Shown piece by piece: positions 57,442 to 64,000 of a DNA stretch of 64,000 nt. Within the stretch, counting starts at the first letter, position 1; each line of letters opens with the position of its first letter. The notes beneath the pieces were generated by a model. The model was not told where the DNA came from. It saw only the letters and a list, made by a program, of their open reading frames with translations, and did not search any database. The translations under genes and the position numbers were made by a program. The stretch is taken from the sequence record SRR22947727_1968; one strand, 5' to 3'.

Positions 57442-58274
57442 AATCGGGTAAGAATTACCCCCGCAACGATCACCAGACCGGCCAAAATTTTGGTCGGCCC
57501 CATTGTGTCGCGAAAGAACAACCAACCCAACAGCATCGCGAATAGGATGGAGCTTTCACGCAAAGCGGTGACCAGGGCAATTGGCGCTTTCGTCATCGCC
57601 CAAACCACAAGCGCGTAAGCGATAAAAGAAGCAAACCCGGCCAAAAGCCCAAGGGCAATCTGCCCACCGCCGCGCGGAAGAACCGAACGACCGCGTAATG
57701 CCAATATTACAGGGGTGTAAAACACCGCAGAGAGAACCAGCAACCACGAGACATAGGCCAGCGCATCCCCCATCACCCGCGCGCCCATCCCATCCACCAG
57801 CGAATAGCCCGCCGTCGCGGCCGCAGACCCAAGCGCCAGCGGAATGAGCCTGCGATCCTCACCCGAGCTGAACACCCCATGCGCCATCAGGACAATCCCC
57901 AGTCCCAAAACCAATATCCCCAGCAGATCCAACCCGCGCAGCGAGTCAATGCCGAATGACAGGCTCACGATCAGAACGATCATCGGCGCAGCCCCCCGGG
58001 CAATGGGGTAGACCCGGCTTAAATCGCCACGCTCGTAGGCAAGGCCTAAAAACAGTTGGTAAAACATATGAATAAGGCCCGAGGCGATGAGCCAGAGCCA
58101 AGCCGTGCCCTGCGGCAGCGAAACAAAGGGGAGAATGCAAAGCCCAAAGAAGGCATGAGCCAAAGTCAAAAGCAGCATGCCCGATTGCTTGTTTTGTCCA
58201 GTTTTGACCAAAGCATTCCAGCCGGCATGCAGCAGCGCGGCAAACACCACCGAGCTGAACACCAGCCCAGTCAC
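57438..58274 (-). CDS. EamA/DMT transporter
   Basis: LHAGWN, VYPIARG and ALRESS motifs. Confidence 0.88.
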   Translation of the reverse strand: MTGLVFSSVVFAALLHAGWNALVKTGQNKQSGMLLLTLAHAFFGLCILPFVSLPQGTAWLWLIASGLIHMFYQLFLGLAYERGDLSRVYPIARGAAPMIVLIVSLSFGIDSLRGLDLLGILVLGLGIVLMAHGVFSSGEDRRLIPLALGSAAATAGYSLVDGMGARVMGDALAYVSWLLVLSAVFYTPVILALRGRSVLPRGGGQIALGLLAGFASFIAYALVVWAMTKAPIALVTALRESSILFAMLLGWLFFRDTMGPTKILAGLVIVAGVILTRF

Positions 58275-58298
58275 AGCCCCCTCACAAAATAAAGGGAA

Positions 58299-58321
58299 GC
58301 GGGGCGCAGAGGGCGCCCCGC
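58299..58321 (-). terminator. Terminator after ileS
   Basis: 9-bp GC stem GCGGGGCGC/GCGCCCCGC followed by TTCCCTTTATTTT on the minus strand. Confidence 0.65.
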
Positions 58322-58340
58322 CGCAAAATCACAGCTCGCC

Positions 58341-61247
58341 CTAGCGCAACGCCGCATCGCAGCGCCCACAGACACCGGCGTGACTGTGTTGACCCACATC
58401 GGGCAAAATTTTCCAACACCGCTGGCATTTTTCACCGCTGGCTTTCGCAAAGGACACCGCCACCCCATCTGTGTCTTCTAAGACAAAGGCAGCCTCTGGC
58501 GCGGCTTGGGTCGAAATTTCAATGCCAGATGTGATACACAAATCGGCAAAACTCACAGATTTCAACACCTCGGCCACCTCTGCGGATACATAGACCACGG
58601 GTGCGGCCTCAAGGCTGGAGCCGATGTTCTTTTCACGCCGCTGCACTTCCAGGGCGCCGGTCACCACACGGCGCACCTTGCGGATGCTGGACCATTTCTC
58701 AGCCAAATCCGGATTGGACCAGCGCGATGGGGTCTGCGGCATGTCTTGCAAATGCACCGAACTGCCCTCCTCCGGGTGGCGCTCCAGCCAAACCTCTTCC
58801 ATCGTGAAGGTCAGAACCGGCGCCAGCCAAGTCGTCAAACGGTGATAGAGAATATCCAAAACCGTCCGAGCCGCCCGGCGTTCTGCGGTATCGCCATCGC
58901 AGTAAAGCACGTCTTTGCGAATATCGAAGTAGAATGATGACAGATCCACGGTCGCAAATTGGAACAAGGCTTGGAAAACCCCTTGGAAGTCATAGGCTGA
59001 GTAGCCTTCCCGGACGGTGGCATCCAATTGCGCCAAACGATGCAATACCCATTGCTCCAGCTCAGGCATTGCCTCAGGCGCCACCTGATCTGACGGGGTG
59101 AAATCCGCCAGAGAGCCCAGCATAAACCGCATTGTATTGCGCAACCGTCGATAGCTATCGGCCACACCTTTGAGGATCTCCGGCCCAATCCTAAGATCAC
59201 TGGTATAATCGGATTGCGCCACCCAAAGACGCAAAATATCCGCGCCATATTGCCGGGTCACATCCTCAGGCGAAACGGTATTGCCGATGGATTTGGACAT
59301 CTTCATGCCCTTTTCATCCAGCGTGAACCCATGGGTCAACACGCCCCGATAAGGCGCGCGGCCCTGGGTGCCGCAAGATTGCAGCATTGAGGAATGAAAC
59401 CATCCTCGATGTTGGTCTGTACCTTCAAGATAGAGATCGGCCAAGCCATCATCAGACCCATCTGCCCGGTCGCGCAACACAAAAGCATGCGTGGATCCGC
59501 TGTCAAACCAAACGTCCAAGATGTCGAACACCTGCGTGAAGTCCTCGGGTGCCACAATCCCGCTCAAGAAGCGCTCTTTCGCGCCCTCTTTATACCAAGC
59601 ATCGGCTCCTTCGGCCTCAAAAGCCTCTAACACGCGGGCATTAACCTCTTCATTGCGCAGCAGATAATCGTCATCCGTGGGCAGGCTGCCGTTTTTGGTA
59701 AAACACGTCAAAGGCACGCCCCAGGCGCGCTGGCGCGACAACACCCAATCGGGCCGGGCTTCGATCATGGAATACAACCGATTGCGCCCGGTCGGCGGAG
59801 TCCAAGTGACAAGCTCATCAATGGAGGTCAGCGCCCGCTCGCGGATGGTCTTGCCATAGGTGTCTTGCCCATCGTTGACCGGCTTGTCGACGGCAGCAAA
59901 CCATTGCGGCGTATTGCGATAGATCACAGGCGCCTTAGAGCGCCAGCTGTGCGGGTAGCTGTGCTTGATTTTGCCACGCGCCAACAAACCACCCACTTCG
60001 GCCAGTTTCTCAATAATCGCGCCATTGGCGTTGCCCTCTTTGCCATTGGGCTTGAGGATCGCCTTGCCGCCAAAGAATGGAAGATCCGCGCGAAAACGCC
60101 CATCTTCCATCACGTTATAGGTGATCACCTGCTCCAACATGCCCAAGTCGCGGTAGAGCTCAAACTCTTCCATGCCGTGCGAGGGTGCACAATGCACAAA
60201 TCCCGTGCCTTCACTGTCGGTGACAAAATCAGCCGCGCGGAAGTCGCGAATATCATCCCATTCGCCCGCGCCGCCTTCAACACCGTGCAACGGGTGAAGC
60301 AGCTGAATCTTCGCCAAATCCTCGGAGGTGATATCACAAAGGCGGCGATACATCGACGGATCAAGACGCGCACGGCCCAAGACATCTTCGGCCAGTGCAT
60401 CTGACAAAATAAACCGCTCGCCGATCCGGGCCCAGCATTCCTCAGGCCGGCCGATCACCTCATACAGCCCGTAGGAAATTCCCGCGCCATAGACCACCGC
60501 CTTATTCGACGGCATGGTCCAGGGCGTGGTGGTCCATATCACAACTTTCGCACTGTCTAATGTCGCATCACCCGTGCCAACCACTTGAAATTTCACCCAA
60601 ACGGTGAAGCTTTCCTTGTCGTGATATTCCACCTCAGCTTCCGCCAGGGCCGTTTTCTCCACAGGCGACCACATCACAGGTTTTGACCCTTGATACAGGG
60701 TGCCATTCATCAAGAATTTCTGAAATTCCGCCGCGATCACCCGTTCCGCATGAAAATCCATCGTCAAATACGGATTTTCCCATTTGCCGGTGATGCCCAG
60801 TCGCTTGAATTCATCGCGCTGGATATCGACCCAACCGGCGGCAAATTCGCGGCATTCCTGACGAAATTCGACCAAAGGAACCGCGTCTTTATCGCGGCCT
60901 TTTTTGCGGTATTTCTCTTCTATTTTCCACTCAATCGGCAGCCCGTGACAATCCCAACCGGGGATATAGCGCGCATCTCTGCCCATCATTTGCTGCGAGC
61001 GCACCACCATATCTTTGAGGATCTTATTGAGCGCATGACCAATGTGCAGGTTGCCATTGGCATAGGGCGGCCCGTCATGCAGGGTAAAGCTCTCACGCCC
61101 TGTTTTCTCGCGCAATCGGTCATAGATGCCGATCTCTTCCCAACGGGCCAGCCATTCAGGTTCGCGTTTTGGCAGGCCGGCACGCATGGGGAAATCTGTC
61201 TTAGGCAGATTGAGAGTGTCTTTGTAGTCAGGTGTTTGCTCGGACAT
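58341..61247 (-). CDS. ileS: Isoleucine--tRNA ligase
   Basis: HIGH and KMSKS motifs; C-terminal CQRC..CGRC zinc finger. Confidence 0.97.
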
Positions 61248-61323
61248 ATCTCGTCTCATCTTTAATAAACTGGGGAAAGGCGGCGCGGTGGGCTCCAACG
61301 CCTTTGGCCCGGCAGCTGCATTG

Positions 61324-61371
61324 TCACAGTGCCGGGGATATAATTCGTAGAATGATCAATATCCGTTCCAT
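61324..61371 (-). CDS. Putative ileS leader peptide [15 protein letters not shown]
   Basis: ATG GAA CGG ATA TTG ATC ATT CTA CGA ATT ATA TCC CCG GCA CTG TGA: 5 Ile within 8 codons, directly upstream of ileS. Confidence 0.7.
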
Positions 61372-61380
61372 CTCGCGCCG

Positions 61381-61409
61381 GTTATAGGCCCCTCTGTGCC
61401 GCTGCACAA
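61381..61409 (-). promoter_or_regulatory. Sigma70-type promoter of leader-ileS
   Basis: TTGTGC-N17-TATAAC, 9 nt before the leader ATG. Confidence 0.6.
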
Positions 61410-61452
61410 CTGGCTTGACGCAGAGAGTTTGCCGCAGGGCAGAAAATTCCCT

Positions 61453-62469
61453 TCAGCGCGTCCGATCCGACAGGAAAACGCCCAAGAGTGCCCGCTTCAT
61501 GAGGCCCGTCACACTGGGGAATGCCCCCGGCTGAAAGGCAAGGGGGCGGCACAGCTGCATGGCTGCAACCCCCACCCGCGCGGTCAAAGCCCCATTGATG
61601 ACACCTTCGCCGAATTTTCTGGAAAACTTGGCCAAAACAGACCCTCCCGCAACCGACCCAATGAGATCATCACCAATGGCCACAGCCCCCGTTGCAATCA
61701 CATGGGCCAAGACCAGACGCGTCAAACGCCAACTGCCAAAAAATCCTGAACGGCCGCCATATATCTCAGCAATCTTGCGGATCATGCGCAGATTGGTGAC
61801 CAGAGTTGCGACCACATCCACCAAGGCGAGCGGCATCAAAGCGGTGAGGGTCGTGACCTGCCGGGCCGCGGCCTCGATCGTTTGCTCGGCCAAACGGTCC
61901 AAAGGCGATAGCAGCGCGCGTTCTGCCGCCTCCATCATCCCATCGGCATCAAATATGTCTGGTTTTTGCTCCGAAAAACGGGCCATCTGCCAACGCAGCT
62001 CCTCCCGGCCACGGTAGAGTGCCTCAAGCTCGGCACAGACAAACTGCGCCTCGGCCAGTACCCCAGACCCGCGCGCAGCGCTGGCCCTTTGCTGAATTTG
62101 ATCAATCCGCGTCAAACGGCGCAGGGCCGAGATTTCCTTGCCGACCAAGACCAAGGTCGCAACGCTGGCACCCACCAATAAGGCAACGGCCAACCACCCT
62201 AGGGCGGGAAAGCGCACGATCAGCCCGGTCAGAAATTCCCAGATGGCCAGGCACATACTCATCACCACAAAGGCGCTGAAAAACCCAAAAGCCCAGCGCA
62301 GCGCCCGGCCAGGACGGCGACCGAGCAGCAGCGTTGTCGCCTGAAAACTGGTCGAGCGCTGCCCCGCATCCAGCCCCGCCTCAGGGATGGGAGGGGCGGT
62401 TTCCGGCGTCACATCTTGATCTGATGCCGGCAGCTCTACAACCAAAGGCGCATTGCGTTTCTCATCCAT
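61453..62469 (-). CDS. ycjF: YcjF family membrane protein
   Basis: GEGVINGALTARVG...CRP motif. Confidence 0.88.
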   Translation of the reverse strand: MDEKRNAPLVVELPASDQDVTPETAPPIPEAGLDAGQRSTSFQATTLLLGRRPGRALRWAFGFFSAFVVMSMCLAIWEFLTGLIVRFPALGWLAVALLVGASVATLVLVGKEISALRRLTRIDQIQQRASAARGSGVLAEAQFVCAELEALYRGREELRWQMARFSEQKPDIFDADGMMEAAERALLSPLDRLAEQTIEAAARQVTTLTALMPLALVDVVATLVTNLRMIRKIAEIYGGRSGFFGSWRLTRLVLAHVIATGAVAIGDDLIGSVAGGSVLAKFSRKFGEGVINGALTARVGVAAMQLCRPLAFQPGAFPSVTGLMKRALLGVFLSDRTR

Positions 62470-62908
62470 GGGTCTGCCTCCAACACAGCATCATATCAGG
62501 CAGGTTGTAATCATTATCCTGCCCATCACTGGTCTCCACCACCTGAAAGCCCAAGCTGCGATAAAACCCCTGCGCCCTCCGGTCACTTTGAAACACCCAA
62601 AGCCGAAGCTGGTCACATTGGGATTGCGCATAGCTCATGGCCGCGCGCCCAAACCCGCGCCTTTGAAACTGCGAGCGAATATAAAGCGATTGCACGATAT
62701 CCCTTTCCAGAGCCAAAAATCCAACGCACTGCCCCCGCCAGTGCAACATCGTCACCTCAGAGTGATCCAGCAAGACACGGCCATAATCGGCCCGCTCCAC
62801 CGGATCATGCACCGGAGGAATCCAGCTGTTCGCCAGATACCATTCCTCCAAAATTGCGCTGATCTCTGTGGCATCAGACAGGTCAGCCCGAGTGAAATGC
62901 AGGCTCAC
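62462..62908 (-). CDS. GNAT acetyltransferase
   Basis: LYI...QRRGFG and FYRSLGF motifs; GTGA overlap with the ycjX stop. Confidence 0.8.
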   Translation of the reverse strand: MSLHFTRADLSDATEISAILEEWYLANSWIPPVHDPVERADYGRVLLDHSEVTMLHWRGQCVGFLALERDIVQSLYIRSQFQRRGFGRAAMSYAQSQCDQLRLWVFQSDRRAQGFYRSLGFQVVETSDGQDNDYNLPDMMLCWRQTHG

Positions 62909-64000
62909 AAGACATCTCCAATCAAAAATTGCAGAGCTCGATCCAGGCGGATATGGGGCGGTCCGTAGCCCGGCGGCAAAGACAATGGCGCCGGAGCAAA
63001 GGCTTGATCGTGAAACGCACCCTCCTCCCACTGCGAAACGCCGGCCCGGGCTTGCGCCATTACCCGCGCGGGCGAGGCTGGAAACTCCCCGGGATAAAAT
63101 CCCACGGTCTTACCAGACCCCAGCGCCAAGCCCTTTACGGCAGGCAAGCTTTGCCCGTGCTTATCTAAATCAATCTCAACCGTATTGCGCAGGGCCGCCA
63201 TCGCGATTGAGCTGGTCAAGGCTCCCTTGAACCGCGCCGTGTCCCGCGCCGATTGCGTGAGCGCGGCCACCAAATCTTGCAATGCGCCATGCTGTAGGTG
63301 ATGCAAGTGATCGGCCTTTGAGGCGGCAAATAAAATCCGGTCGATGCGCCGCCCGCGCAGCAATTCGCGCAAAAATCCCCGCTTTCCTGGACGAAACGCC
63401 CTCAAAATGCCTGTCATCGCCTGCTCAAGATCTGCGACGGCGGCCGGGCCGTCCGACAAGCTCTTCAGCAGATCCACCAAAACAATTTGCCGATCCAATT
63501 TTGCAAAATGATCGCGAAAGAACGGCTTCACGATCTTCTCCTGATAGGCCTCAAATCGCCGCTGCATTTCCGCACGCAAAGACCGCTTATCGCCCGCGCC
63601 CTTGGGCAAAGGCGCAAAGGTCAACACGGGGGACCCGGCCAAATCACCGGGCAAAAGCATGCGCCCCGGGGTTAAATTTGAAAACCCTGCTTGCCGCGCC
63701 GCTGTGAGATAGGCCGCATAGGCTTTGGCCAATTGGGAGGCACTGACATCATCAAAGGGTTTTGCGCCGTCAACCGTGTTCAGTTTGGCGCAATATTCAC
63801 TGGCCTGCGCGCGTCCTTCAGCCGATTGCAACGCTTGCTCTGACCACTGATCATAGGTCAAATCCCATAACCCCAAATCAAGCAGCCATTCGCCGGGATA
63901 ATCCACAATGTCCAGATGCACCGTTTTTGACGGCGCCATGGCCGCGAACATCCCCTGCGGCGCCAGTCTGAACGACAGGCGCAACTGGCTGATGGTTTGG
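62905..64000 (-). CDS. ycjX: YcjX family P-loop NTPase (5' end outside the window)
   Basis: DIVDYPGEWLLD, ASKADH and PHIRLD motifs. Confidence 0.9.
   Translation of the reverse strand, partial: QTISQLRLSFRLAPQGMFAAMAPSKTVHLDIVDYPGEWLLDLGLWDLTYDQWSEQALQSAEGRAQASEYCAKLNTVDGAKPFDDVSASQLAKAYAAYLTAARQAGFSNLTPGRMLLPGDLAGSPVLTFAPLPKGAGDKRSLRAEMQRRFEAYQEKIVKPFFRDHFAKLDRQIVLVDLLKSLSDGPAAVADLEQAMTGILRAFRPGKRGFLRELLRGRRIDRILFAASKADHLHHLQHGALQDLVAALTQSARDTARFKGALTSSIAMAALRNTVEIDLDKHGQSLPAVKGLALGSGKTVGFYPGEFPASPARVMAQARAGVSQWEEGAFHDQAFAPAPLSLPPGYGPPHIRLDRALQFLIGDVL

Follow-up and report, generated by a model that had tools for sequence, protein, structure and literature searches.

Features of the ileS leader

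The window, a stretch of 64,000 nucleotides, carries on its minus strand a gene for isoleucine-tRNA ligase, ileS, preceded by a short leader with a predicted promoter of its own (Table 1). The ileS start is the ATG at 61247; a longer call, from a TTG at 61298, begins within the second stem of the leader. The most prominent feature of this leader is a near-leaderless upstream open reading frame (uORF) whose codons 4–11 include five isoleucine codons (ATA, ATC, ATT, ATT and ATA) and whose stop codon sits in the loop of helix 1. Only one of the 349 ATG-initiated ORFs of 12–20 codons on both strands of the whole window has five Ile codons, and it is this one. The initial annotation had described the promoter, its spacing to the ATG, the uORF and both stems at the positions at which we find them, although a consensus promoter scan did not flag 61381..61409. 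Both stems are present together in the minimum free energy (MFE) structure of 61345–61270 (−29 kcal/mol, z −2.3; 5 of 200 shuffled sequences fold equally well). The second stem exists as annotated, but the register that is conserved is slightly different and pairs 61302–61298 with 61286–61282. The real core of the element, which the annotation missed, is the sequence CGA-ATT-A with a hairpin at fixed spacing from it.

Table 1. Features of the ileS leader and its surroundings in the window
Feature	Position	Strand	Remarks
−35 hexamer TTGTGC of the predicted leader promoter	61404..61409	−	read from sequence
−10 hexamer TATAAC	61381..61386	−	17 nt after −35; 9 nt before ATG 61371
Leader uORF, 15 codons + TGA, five Ile codons	61324..61371	−	ATG at 61371
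Core CGA-ATT-A (rare Arg codon, invariant Ile codon, A-starting codon)	61341..61347	−	proposed stall site
Helix 1, 5′ arm (Pro-Ala-Leu codons)	61326..61336	−	starts 5–6 nt past ATT
Helix 1, 3′ arm	61308..61319	−	MFE fold and aligned pair count
Helix 2, 5′ arm, family-specific, outside the class-wide core	61298..61305	−	
Helix 2, 3′ arm	61276..61286	−	MFE fold, RNAalifold, pair count
G-poor, pyrimidine-rich spacer lacking a U-tract; may belong to a Rho loading site	61258..61275	−	
ileS, isoleucine-tRNA ligase (regulated gene)	58341..61247	−	NCBIfam TIGR00392, 781 bits, cut-off 621
Upstream co-directional gene, TIGR01620 family	61453..62469	−	context only

A terminator scan finds no terminator-like site between the TIGR01620-family gene and the leader, and RNA of the leader and ileS may also arise by read-through from that gene. 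Assembled contigs from four public RNA-library sets cover the stretch, though they reveal neither ends nor abundance of a transcript. The nearest genome (G001) has the same ileS leader.

Conservation in Rhodobacteraceae and Paracoccaceae

We compared 145 ileS loci, 143 of them distinct, comprising the 30 best and 35 mostly lower-scoring of 145 same-family genomes together with 80 named loci; the named relatives are Rhodobacterales. The anchor ATT-N6-CCG(G/A) lies upstream of ileS in all 145; it was found by a pattern that itself contains ATT and CCG, and the informative part is that no locus lacked it. Alignment across these loci shows the uORF, its Ile codons and the covarying stems all to be conserved, and the proposal of a conserved near-leaderless Ile-codon uORF with covarying stems is thereby borne out at 145 of 145 ileS loci. 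The leader is real and conserved.

The −10 box is TATAAG in 90 and TATAAC in 26 of the 143 leaders, and −35 hexamers other than that of the window (TTTACC, TGGACG, TGGACC, TTGNCN) recur in relatives at the same 17 nt spacing. Downstream of the −10 box, the first ATG shares its frame with the anchor ATT in 139/139 leaders, where chance would give one in three each; this ATG follows the box by 4–10 nt in all of these and by 6–7 nt in 112. As 6–7 nt is the distance of a leaderless start, the 9 nt of the window make a 2–3 nt leader likely. Conservation argues for a leaderless start of the uORF, the one experimental demonstration being in the probable Caulobacter counterpart (see below). The uORFs span 14–19 codons and end 6–8 codons past the ATT with TGA, TAA or TAG.

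Codon choice around the anchor is strongly constrained. The anchor is ATT in 143/143 leaders, a codon that makes up 15% of Ile codons in ileS, and it is preceded by CGA in 131/143, which makes up 2.9% of Arg codons in ileS. The next base is A in 140/143, CCG follows three codons on in 143/143, and the spacing from ATT to helix 1 is free of indels in every leader. Further Ile codons occupy positions −4, −3 and −2 of the anchor in 80, 102 and 108 of the 143 leaders, respectively.

Covariation and position of the hairpins

RNAalifold recovers both helices from 50 aligned leaders. In a pair count on the same alignment 96% of cells are paired, compared with 37–46% in slid controls, and eight pairs, four of them in helix 1, show compensatory change. 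None of 500 shuffles reaches any of five measures for the two helices, counts that are not probabilities, as the aligned leaders are kin and not independent. Pair 135/151 of helix 2 is C-G in 24 and U-A in 22 of the 50 leaders, and basal pair 5 of helix 1 is G-C in 40, A-U in 7 and G-U in 3 of 50 class-level loci. Helix 2 is not conserved in alphaproteobacteria outside Rhodobacteraceae and Paracoccaceae.

The initial annotation took the two hairpins to compete. They do not overlap and are hence compatible, neither alternative helix that we tested covaries, and accessibility of the ribosome binding site (RBS) shows no consistent change with ribosome position. A competing 2:3 helix has four conserved possible pairs without covariation (107–278 of 500 shuffles do as well on most measures), and the 5′ arm of helix 2 is complementary to the RBS spacer, again without covariation. 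Occlusion of the RBS by the freed 3′ arm of helix 1 gives no consistent change in any class. Equilibrium folding reveals no on/off switch in Rhodobacteraceae and Paracoccaceae ileS leaders. At the ileS start itself (e.g., L002–L110), conservation across the family is unusually high in the Shine-Dalgarno (SD) spacer, GGACGCC, and in the first codons of IleRS, which encode Met-Cys-Ala; this region is complementary to the helix 2 5′ arm without covarying with it.

Helix 1 was also folded with a mask over the 5′ RNA that mimics a ribosome. With a mask ending 9 nt from the start of AUU the helix is kept (mean P 0.81); at 12 nt it is mostly lost (P 0.14). With the mask at the stop codon it falls to 0, and the 3′ arm of the helix then tends to find partners downstream (0.56–0.58). 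Helix 1 would thus stand at the leading edge of the ribosome exactly when AUU is decoded. We infer that helix 1 acts as a brake which, together with the rare CGA codon, would sharpen a one-codon sensor.

Two further candidates were rejected. Fusion of the uORF to ileS by frameshifting is at odds with uORF–ileS distances in all three frames (57/43/43 of 143) and with an ileS frame open back to the ATT in only 20 of 143 loci. For a mimic of the tRNA-Ile anticodon in IleRS autoregulation, the loop beyond the stop codon is not conserved.

Distribution of the element and its downstream genes

The motif is found in 20 of 90 ileS upstream regions from across the class (one genome is represented twice), with a variant in a few more, and is present in named records of Paracoccus denitrificans, Sinorhizobium meliloti, Shinella, Methylobacterium and Acetobacter. 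It was not found before ileS in Sphingopyxis or in five genomes of the order's second family. In its strict form it occurs in 77 of 261 alphaproteobacterial genomes, with 100 matches as against 5 for the reversed pattern. We fetched 60 match sites, picked mainly as not at ileS positions already seen; of these, ileS follows at 18 (at 2 of them with an ACT gene in between), a small orphan ACT-domain gene at 32 and something else at 10. A metagenome scan gave 118 matches, 47 before ileS, 24 before ACT genes and 47 other or truncated; the last are mostly weak hairpins or lie inside genes, and we treated them as chance or truncated matches.

The orphan ACT protein (∼100 aa; among others at L365, L374, L375, L407, L372, L380, L394, L395 and L414) is weakly IlvM-like, and its Atlas clusters are labeled PF26954 ACT_12. 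It is possibly an Ile-induced alternative small subunit or a regulator. Behind it lie citramalate-synthase-like genes at three loci (best match TIGR00977, from fragments under the cut-off), a biosynthetic threonine dehydratase gene at one, DUF4743-NUDIX genes at nine, and others. At one locus the motif directly precedes threonine ammonia-lyase.

Other placements are rarer. At L413 (G199:C78) the leader lies directly before ribF and not between ribF and ileS, and there it may control the whole ribF operon. Three genomes (L366, L377, L423) have the leader immediately ahead of an AAA_33 kinase-like gene, and two (L381, L382) ahead of an NTF2-like gene, neither with a known isoleucine link. One poorly formed match among the 60 fetched loci has an RsmB/F-type methyltransferase gene downstream, and L421 and L422 (G325:C61, G195:C11) carry tandem leader copies ∼200 nt apart before an ACT gene.

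The signal probably sensed by the leader

The genes for IleRS and for both enzymes at the entry to isoleucine synthesis have the element in common, and this is the chief argument for an isoleucine signal, also for leaders with a single Ile codon. The proposal that the leader responds to Ile-tRNA gains from the same motif standing elsewhere before citramalate synthase and threonine dehydratase genes, and we regard sensing of Ile-tRNA by a translating ribosome as highly probable.

Several observations would suit a leader that is not Ile-specific, be it a general gauge of translation rate, a nascent-peptide pause at RIxxP or a constitutive damping element. A single Ile codon is all that is present in 14 of 63 ileS and 18 of 54 ACT leaders at class level, Arg and Pro are conserved as residues, the nine ACT loci with DUF4743-NUDIX genes have no known Ile link, and Caulobacter ileS does not respond to minimal medium (see below). 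A peptide motif, however, would not fix codons, and the identifiable downstream genes (ileS, cimA-like, ilvA) are Ile-specific. In Rhodobacteraceae and Paracoccaceae, Ile codons are moreover piled at −4 to +1 of the anchor, with a median of 4 per leader compared with 4.5% Ile in ileS. We consider an Ile-independent role very unlikely.

The initial annotation had also raised sensing of AUA decoding and of TilS. AUA is indeed enriched: it accounts for 91/392 (23%) of the non-anchor Ile codons, against 2.3% in ileS, and occurs at least once in 76/143 leaders. Codons of the form ANN are read by t6A-bearing tRNAs, and as the codon after AUU starts with A in nearly all leaders, both would be read by such tRNAs. 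A leader that gauges tRNA modification (lysidine made by TilS at AUA, or t6A at ANN codons) and not charging could account for these features. The invariant codon is nevertheless AUU, and AUA is absent from 67/143 family leaders, 36/63 other ileS leaders and 49/54 ACT-type leaders. Third-position A is raised 2.5-fold across the leader generally, and no tilS or tsa gene lies downstream among the 60 fetched motif loci. A modification sensor is, to our minds, the least probable of the alternatives weighed here. Sensing of AUA or TilS is not needed, as many leaders do without the codon.

Predicted release of the Shine-Dalgarno sequence in ACT-type copies

In ACT-type copies the 5′ codons of the uORF pair with the spacer and SD sequence of the ACT gene. 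Cognate uORF:RBS pairs beat swapped partners in 54/56 copies and their own shuffles at the 5% level in 38/53, with uORF identity of only ∼30%. The signal maps to −27..+6 of the uORF and −30..−2 of the ACT start. Stalling lowers the cost of opening the ACT RBS by 4.1 kcal/mol, compared with 0.9 kcal/mol for swapped or shuffled uORFs, and the effect exceeds 1 kcal in 44/53 copies. This pairing would fix the direction of control: a stalled ribosome means on. In 26 of 53 copies the uORF has lost its stop in the loop and runs 8–44 nt into the ACT gene, almost without exception in a single frame, so passing ribosomes would cross the RBS too. At L252, L291 and L293, for example, the predicted fold of the full leader is a long rod that has the uORF codons paired with the SD of the ACT gene. 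Like translational attenuators of the ermC/cat type, for which the signal is an antibiotic, ACT-type copies appear to hide an SD until a stalled ribosome frees it.

Output of the ileS leader

For the ileS copy in the window we propose the following sequence of events. The mRNA would begin with the uORF ATG or 2–3 nt ahead of it, where a 70S ribosome would initiate without an SD. This ribosome would slow at CGA-AUU: the Arg codon is rare, the Ile codon is read by wobble, and helix 1 would then be at the mRNA entry channel; in Rhodobacteraceae and Paracoccaceae the extra Ile codons just upstream would add sensitivity. With little Ile-tRNA the ribosome would stay on the uORF codons and helix 1 would remain folded, whereas with enough Ile-tRNA it would melt helix 1, stop in the loop and leave. 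The repressing element would be the uORF strand that the ribosome covers, as is supported in the paralogous copies. Once the ribosome has left, Rho-type termination would act on the bare RNA (uORF, opened helix 1 arm and C-rich spacer), and a stalled ribosome would block it.

Four points favor this output: the lack of a U-tract, the C-rich and G-poor spacer, the absence of an RBS switch and the analogy with the duf1127 leader discussed below. The window contains no intrinsic terminator with a U-tract at the leader, and the lack of a clean U-run that had been described for it is general, as at least six U in the 8 nt after helix 2 occur in only 5/109 loci. The C/G ratio at −45..−16 of the ileS start is 2.37 (C exceeds G in 139/143), against 1.23 for 43 genes of the window, in an interval that partly overlaps the C-rich arm of helix 2 and with a C-over-G spacer of only 30–45 nt. 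Two properties count against the proposal. The uORF of the ileS leader is not C-rich (C/G 1.1–1.5), and helix 1, with a median of about −19 kcal/mol over the scan loci, is so stable that it would be expected to refold quickly after release of the ribosome. Given that a ribosome senses Ile-tRNA, a Rho-type output for the ileS copy of the window has slightly better than an even chance and is our best guess; for the full proposal, in which a ribosome gauges charged tRNA-Ile and ileS expression goes up through such an output when IleRS activity or isoleucine runs low, we put the chances at even.

The same sensor could instead act on translation, with ribosome position altering access to the ileS RBS. 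This is the output strongly supported in the paralogous ACT class, pairing of uORF and RBS is seen in a minority (11/57) of ileS leaders outside Rhodobacteraceae and Paracoccaceae, and in the window the MFE structure pairs uORF codons with the ileS start such that stalling drops the opening cost from 5.3 to 2.9 kcal/mol. Swapped and shuffled uORFs, however, close the RBS of the window as well (6.8 kcal/mol; z 0.02). Across the family ileS leaders the cognate uORF beats swapped ones in just 57/122 cases (mean rank 0.50) and shuffles in 11/122, and the pairing of the helix 2 5′ arm with the RBS spacer does not covary. Sequence-specific uORF:RBS pairing, the hallmark of a translational attenuator, is thus found in ACT-type copies and not in family ileS leaders or the window, and a translational output of ileS appears unlikely.

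A third possible output is mRNA stability. The conserved GAAUU, which lies 5′ of a hairpin, would here be an endonuclease site of the RNase E type that a stalled ribosome protects and that passing ribosomes leave open to cleavage. GAATTA is invariant at the nucleotide level beyond what the peptide needs (143 leaders), GAAUU fits the RNase E-type consensus RN/WUU, and a search for an RNA partner of CGAAUU in ileS leaders gave nothing above shuffles. The C of CGA is, however, equally conserved, and five leaders keep the arginine as CGC, so an explanation by codons is favored; in ACT-type copies CGAAUU does have a pairing partner, RTTCG, in 26/56 as against 12.3 expected. Control through decay thus seems quite unlikely, and Rho-type termination remains the output we prefer for ileS.

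Considered together, these data would allow a broader model, which we put forward tentatively, its odds being somewhat short of even. A portable, class-wide, single-codon Ile sensor, made of a leaderless uORF with CGA-AUU held against a hairpin brake at fixed distance, would be reused before ileS, cimA, ilvA and the orphan IlvM-like ACT gene as an undescribed Ile regulon, with SD release in ACT copies and Rho-type termination or decay in ileS copies.

Relation to known regulatory systems

In the E. coli attenuators pheM-pheST, ilvL, thrL and trpL, a uORF with cognate codons precedes synthetase or biosynthesis genes, and stalling on it is read by the RNA. The ileS leader differs from these in being leaderless and without an SD, in having neither a covarying antiterminator nor an intrinsic terminator, and often in having a single sensing codon. 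It shares with the classical type a conserved short uORF with cognate codons, translation of which has been seen only for CCNA_03934 of Caulobacter. In place of mutually exclusive antiterminator and terminator helices it has two compatible ones, and the U-tract of an intrinsic terminator is missing from the window and most relatives. The leader very probably senses isoleucyl-tRNA and probably works like a leader-peptide attenuator without two defining features of the classical type.

The closest relative in build is uORFC-8-2, the cysS leader of Rhodobacterales and so of the same order (Brewer et al., 2021; PMC8632094), likewise a cognate-codon uORF before an aminoacyl-tRNA synthetase gene with two stems, for which ribosome-mediated attenuation was predicted. 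Its tandem Cys codons lie inside the first stem and a U-run terminator is present in all cases (PMC8632094), whereas in the ileS leader a single fixed codon precedes the stem and there is no U-tract; its range is class-wide and its reach extends to biosynthetic genes. That study screened Ruegeria TM1040, and its supplementary listings could hold the ileS leader under another number. For output, the analogs are Rho-dependent uORF systems such as tnaC and the S. meliloti duf1127 attenuator (Kothe et al., 2025; PMC12218461). The duf1127 leader, as described there, senses general translation through C-rich codons in an SD-led uORF and has neither an amino-acid-specific codon nor a fixed hairpin, both of which the ileS leader has. 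The translational ileS T-boxes of Actinobacteria (PMC1262725) serve the same gene and the same signal, but bind the tRNA directly. No T-box or other relevant Rfam match was found at E<5 in positions 58000–64000 of the window, nor any Rfam match at E<0.5 in 12 homologous loci.

In Caulobacter crescentus, a ribosome-profiled new ORF, CCNA_03934, was named "ileS leader CDS" (Schrader et al., 2014; PMC4117421). It is 45 nt long (14 codons), leaderless with a 5′-PPP and located 78 nt before ileS, and is also listed as leaderless by Bharmal et al. (2021; PMC8459731). In the passages of PMC4117421 that concern it, its sole role is that of an overexpression negative control, and no mechanism, conservation or Ile link is given. 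At metagenome locus L318 the motif occurs in a leader of 14 codons that lies 78 nt ahead of ileS and behind a PDZ-domain gene resembling the DegQ gene found upstream in Caulobacter, and through this look-alike we infer that CCNA_03934 is a member of the leader class. According to the supplement of PMC4117421, RNA amounts to 829/1185 RPKM for the leader compared with 138/148 for ileS; this 6- to 8-fold fall would fit attenuation, but inflation by 5′-end reads over a 45-nt CDS may contribute. In minimal medium ileS stays flat (138 to 148 RPKM; leader:ileS ratio from 6 to 8) beside a tenfold rise of ilvI, the acetolactate synthase large subunit gene (28 to 275 RPKM; PMC4117421), which argues against a strong response to supply, at least as these values from the supplement represent it.

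In the open full-text literature on ileS leader peptides, attenuation and uORFs in Alphaproteobacteria, the scope of our search, this regulation is undescribed. The main texts of PMC13285730, PMC10117765, PMC12218461, PMC5737381, PMC6429828 and PMC8632094 do not mention ileS, and the part of the S. meliloti small-proteome supplement that we examined has no match to the leader peptide.

The principle of a ribosome-read leader peptide is well established, and for this order the sister cysS leader had already been predicted. The searchable literature gives no account of how IleRS is adjusted in Proteobacteria that lack T-boxes, and the leader, if it works as proposed, would provide the answer for much of the Alphaproteobacteria. 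These include the model organisms S. meliloti, Paracoccus and probably Caulobacter, for which mupirocin is a ready inducer. It would also mean that a single codon, given a rare neighbor and a hairpin, is enough where textbook attenuators rely on runs of codons, and would give the orphan ACT family an isoleucine-related role, with a hint of one for the DUF4743-NUDIX genes behind it.

Genome G001 has related leaders at two further loci. Its leuA is preceded by a leaderless, Leu-rich 16-codon uORF (L427:1359–1409), 7 nt after a −10 box, with a hairpin over the stop and no U-tract, a build like that of the ileS leader but for leucine. Its ilvI (L428) has an SD-led Ile/Val/Leu leader ∼150 nt upstream with a classical U-tract terminator, of the textbook type.
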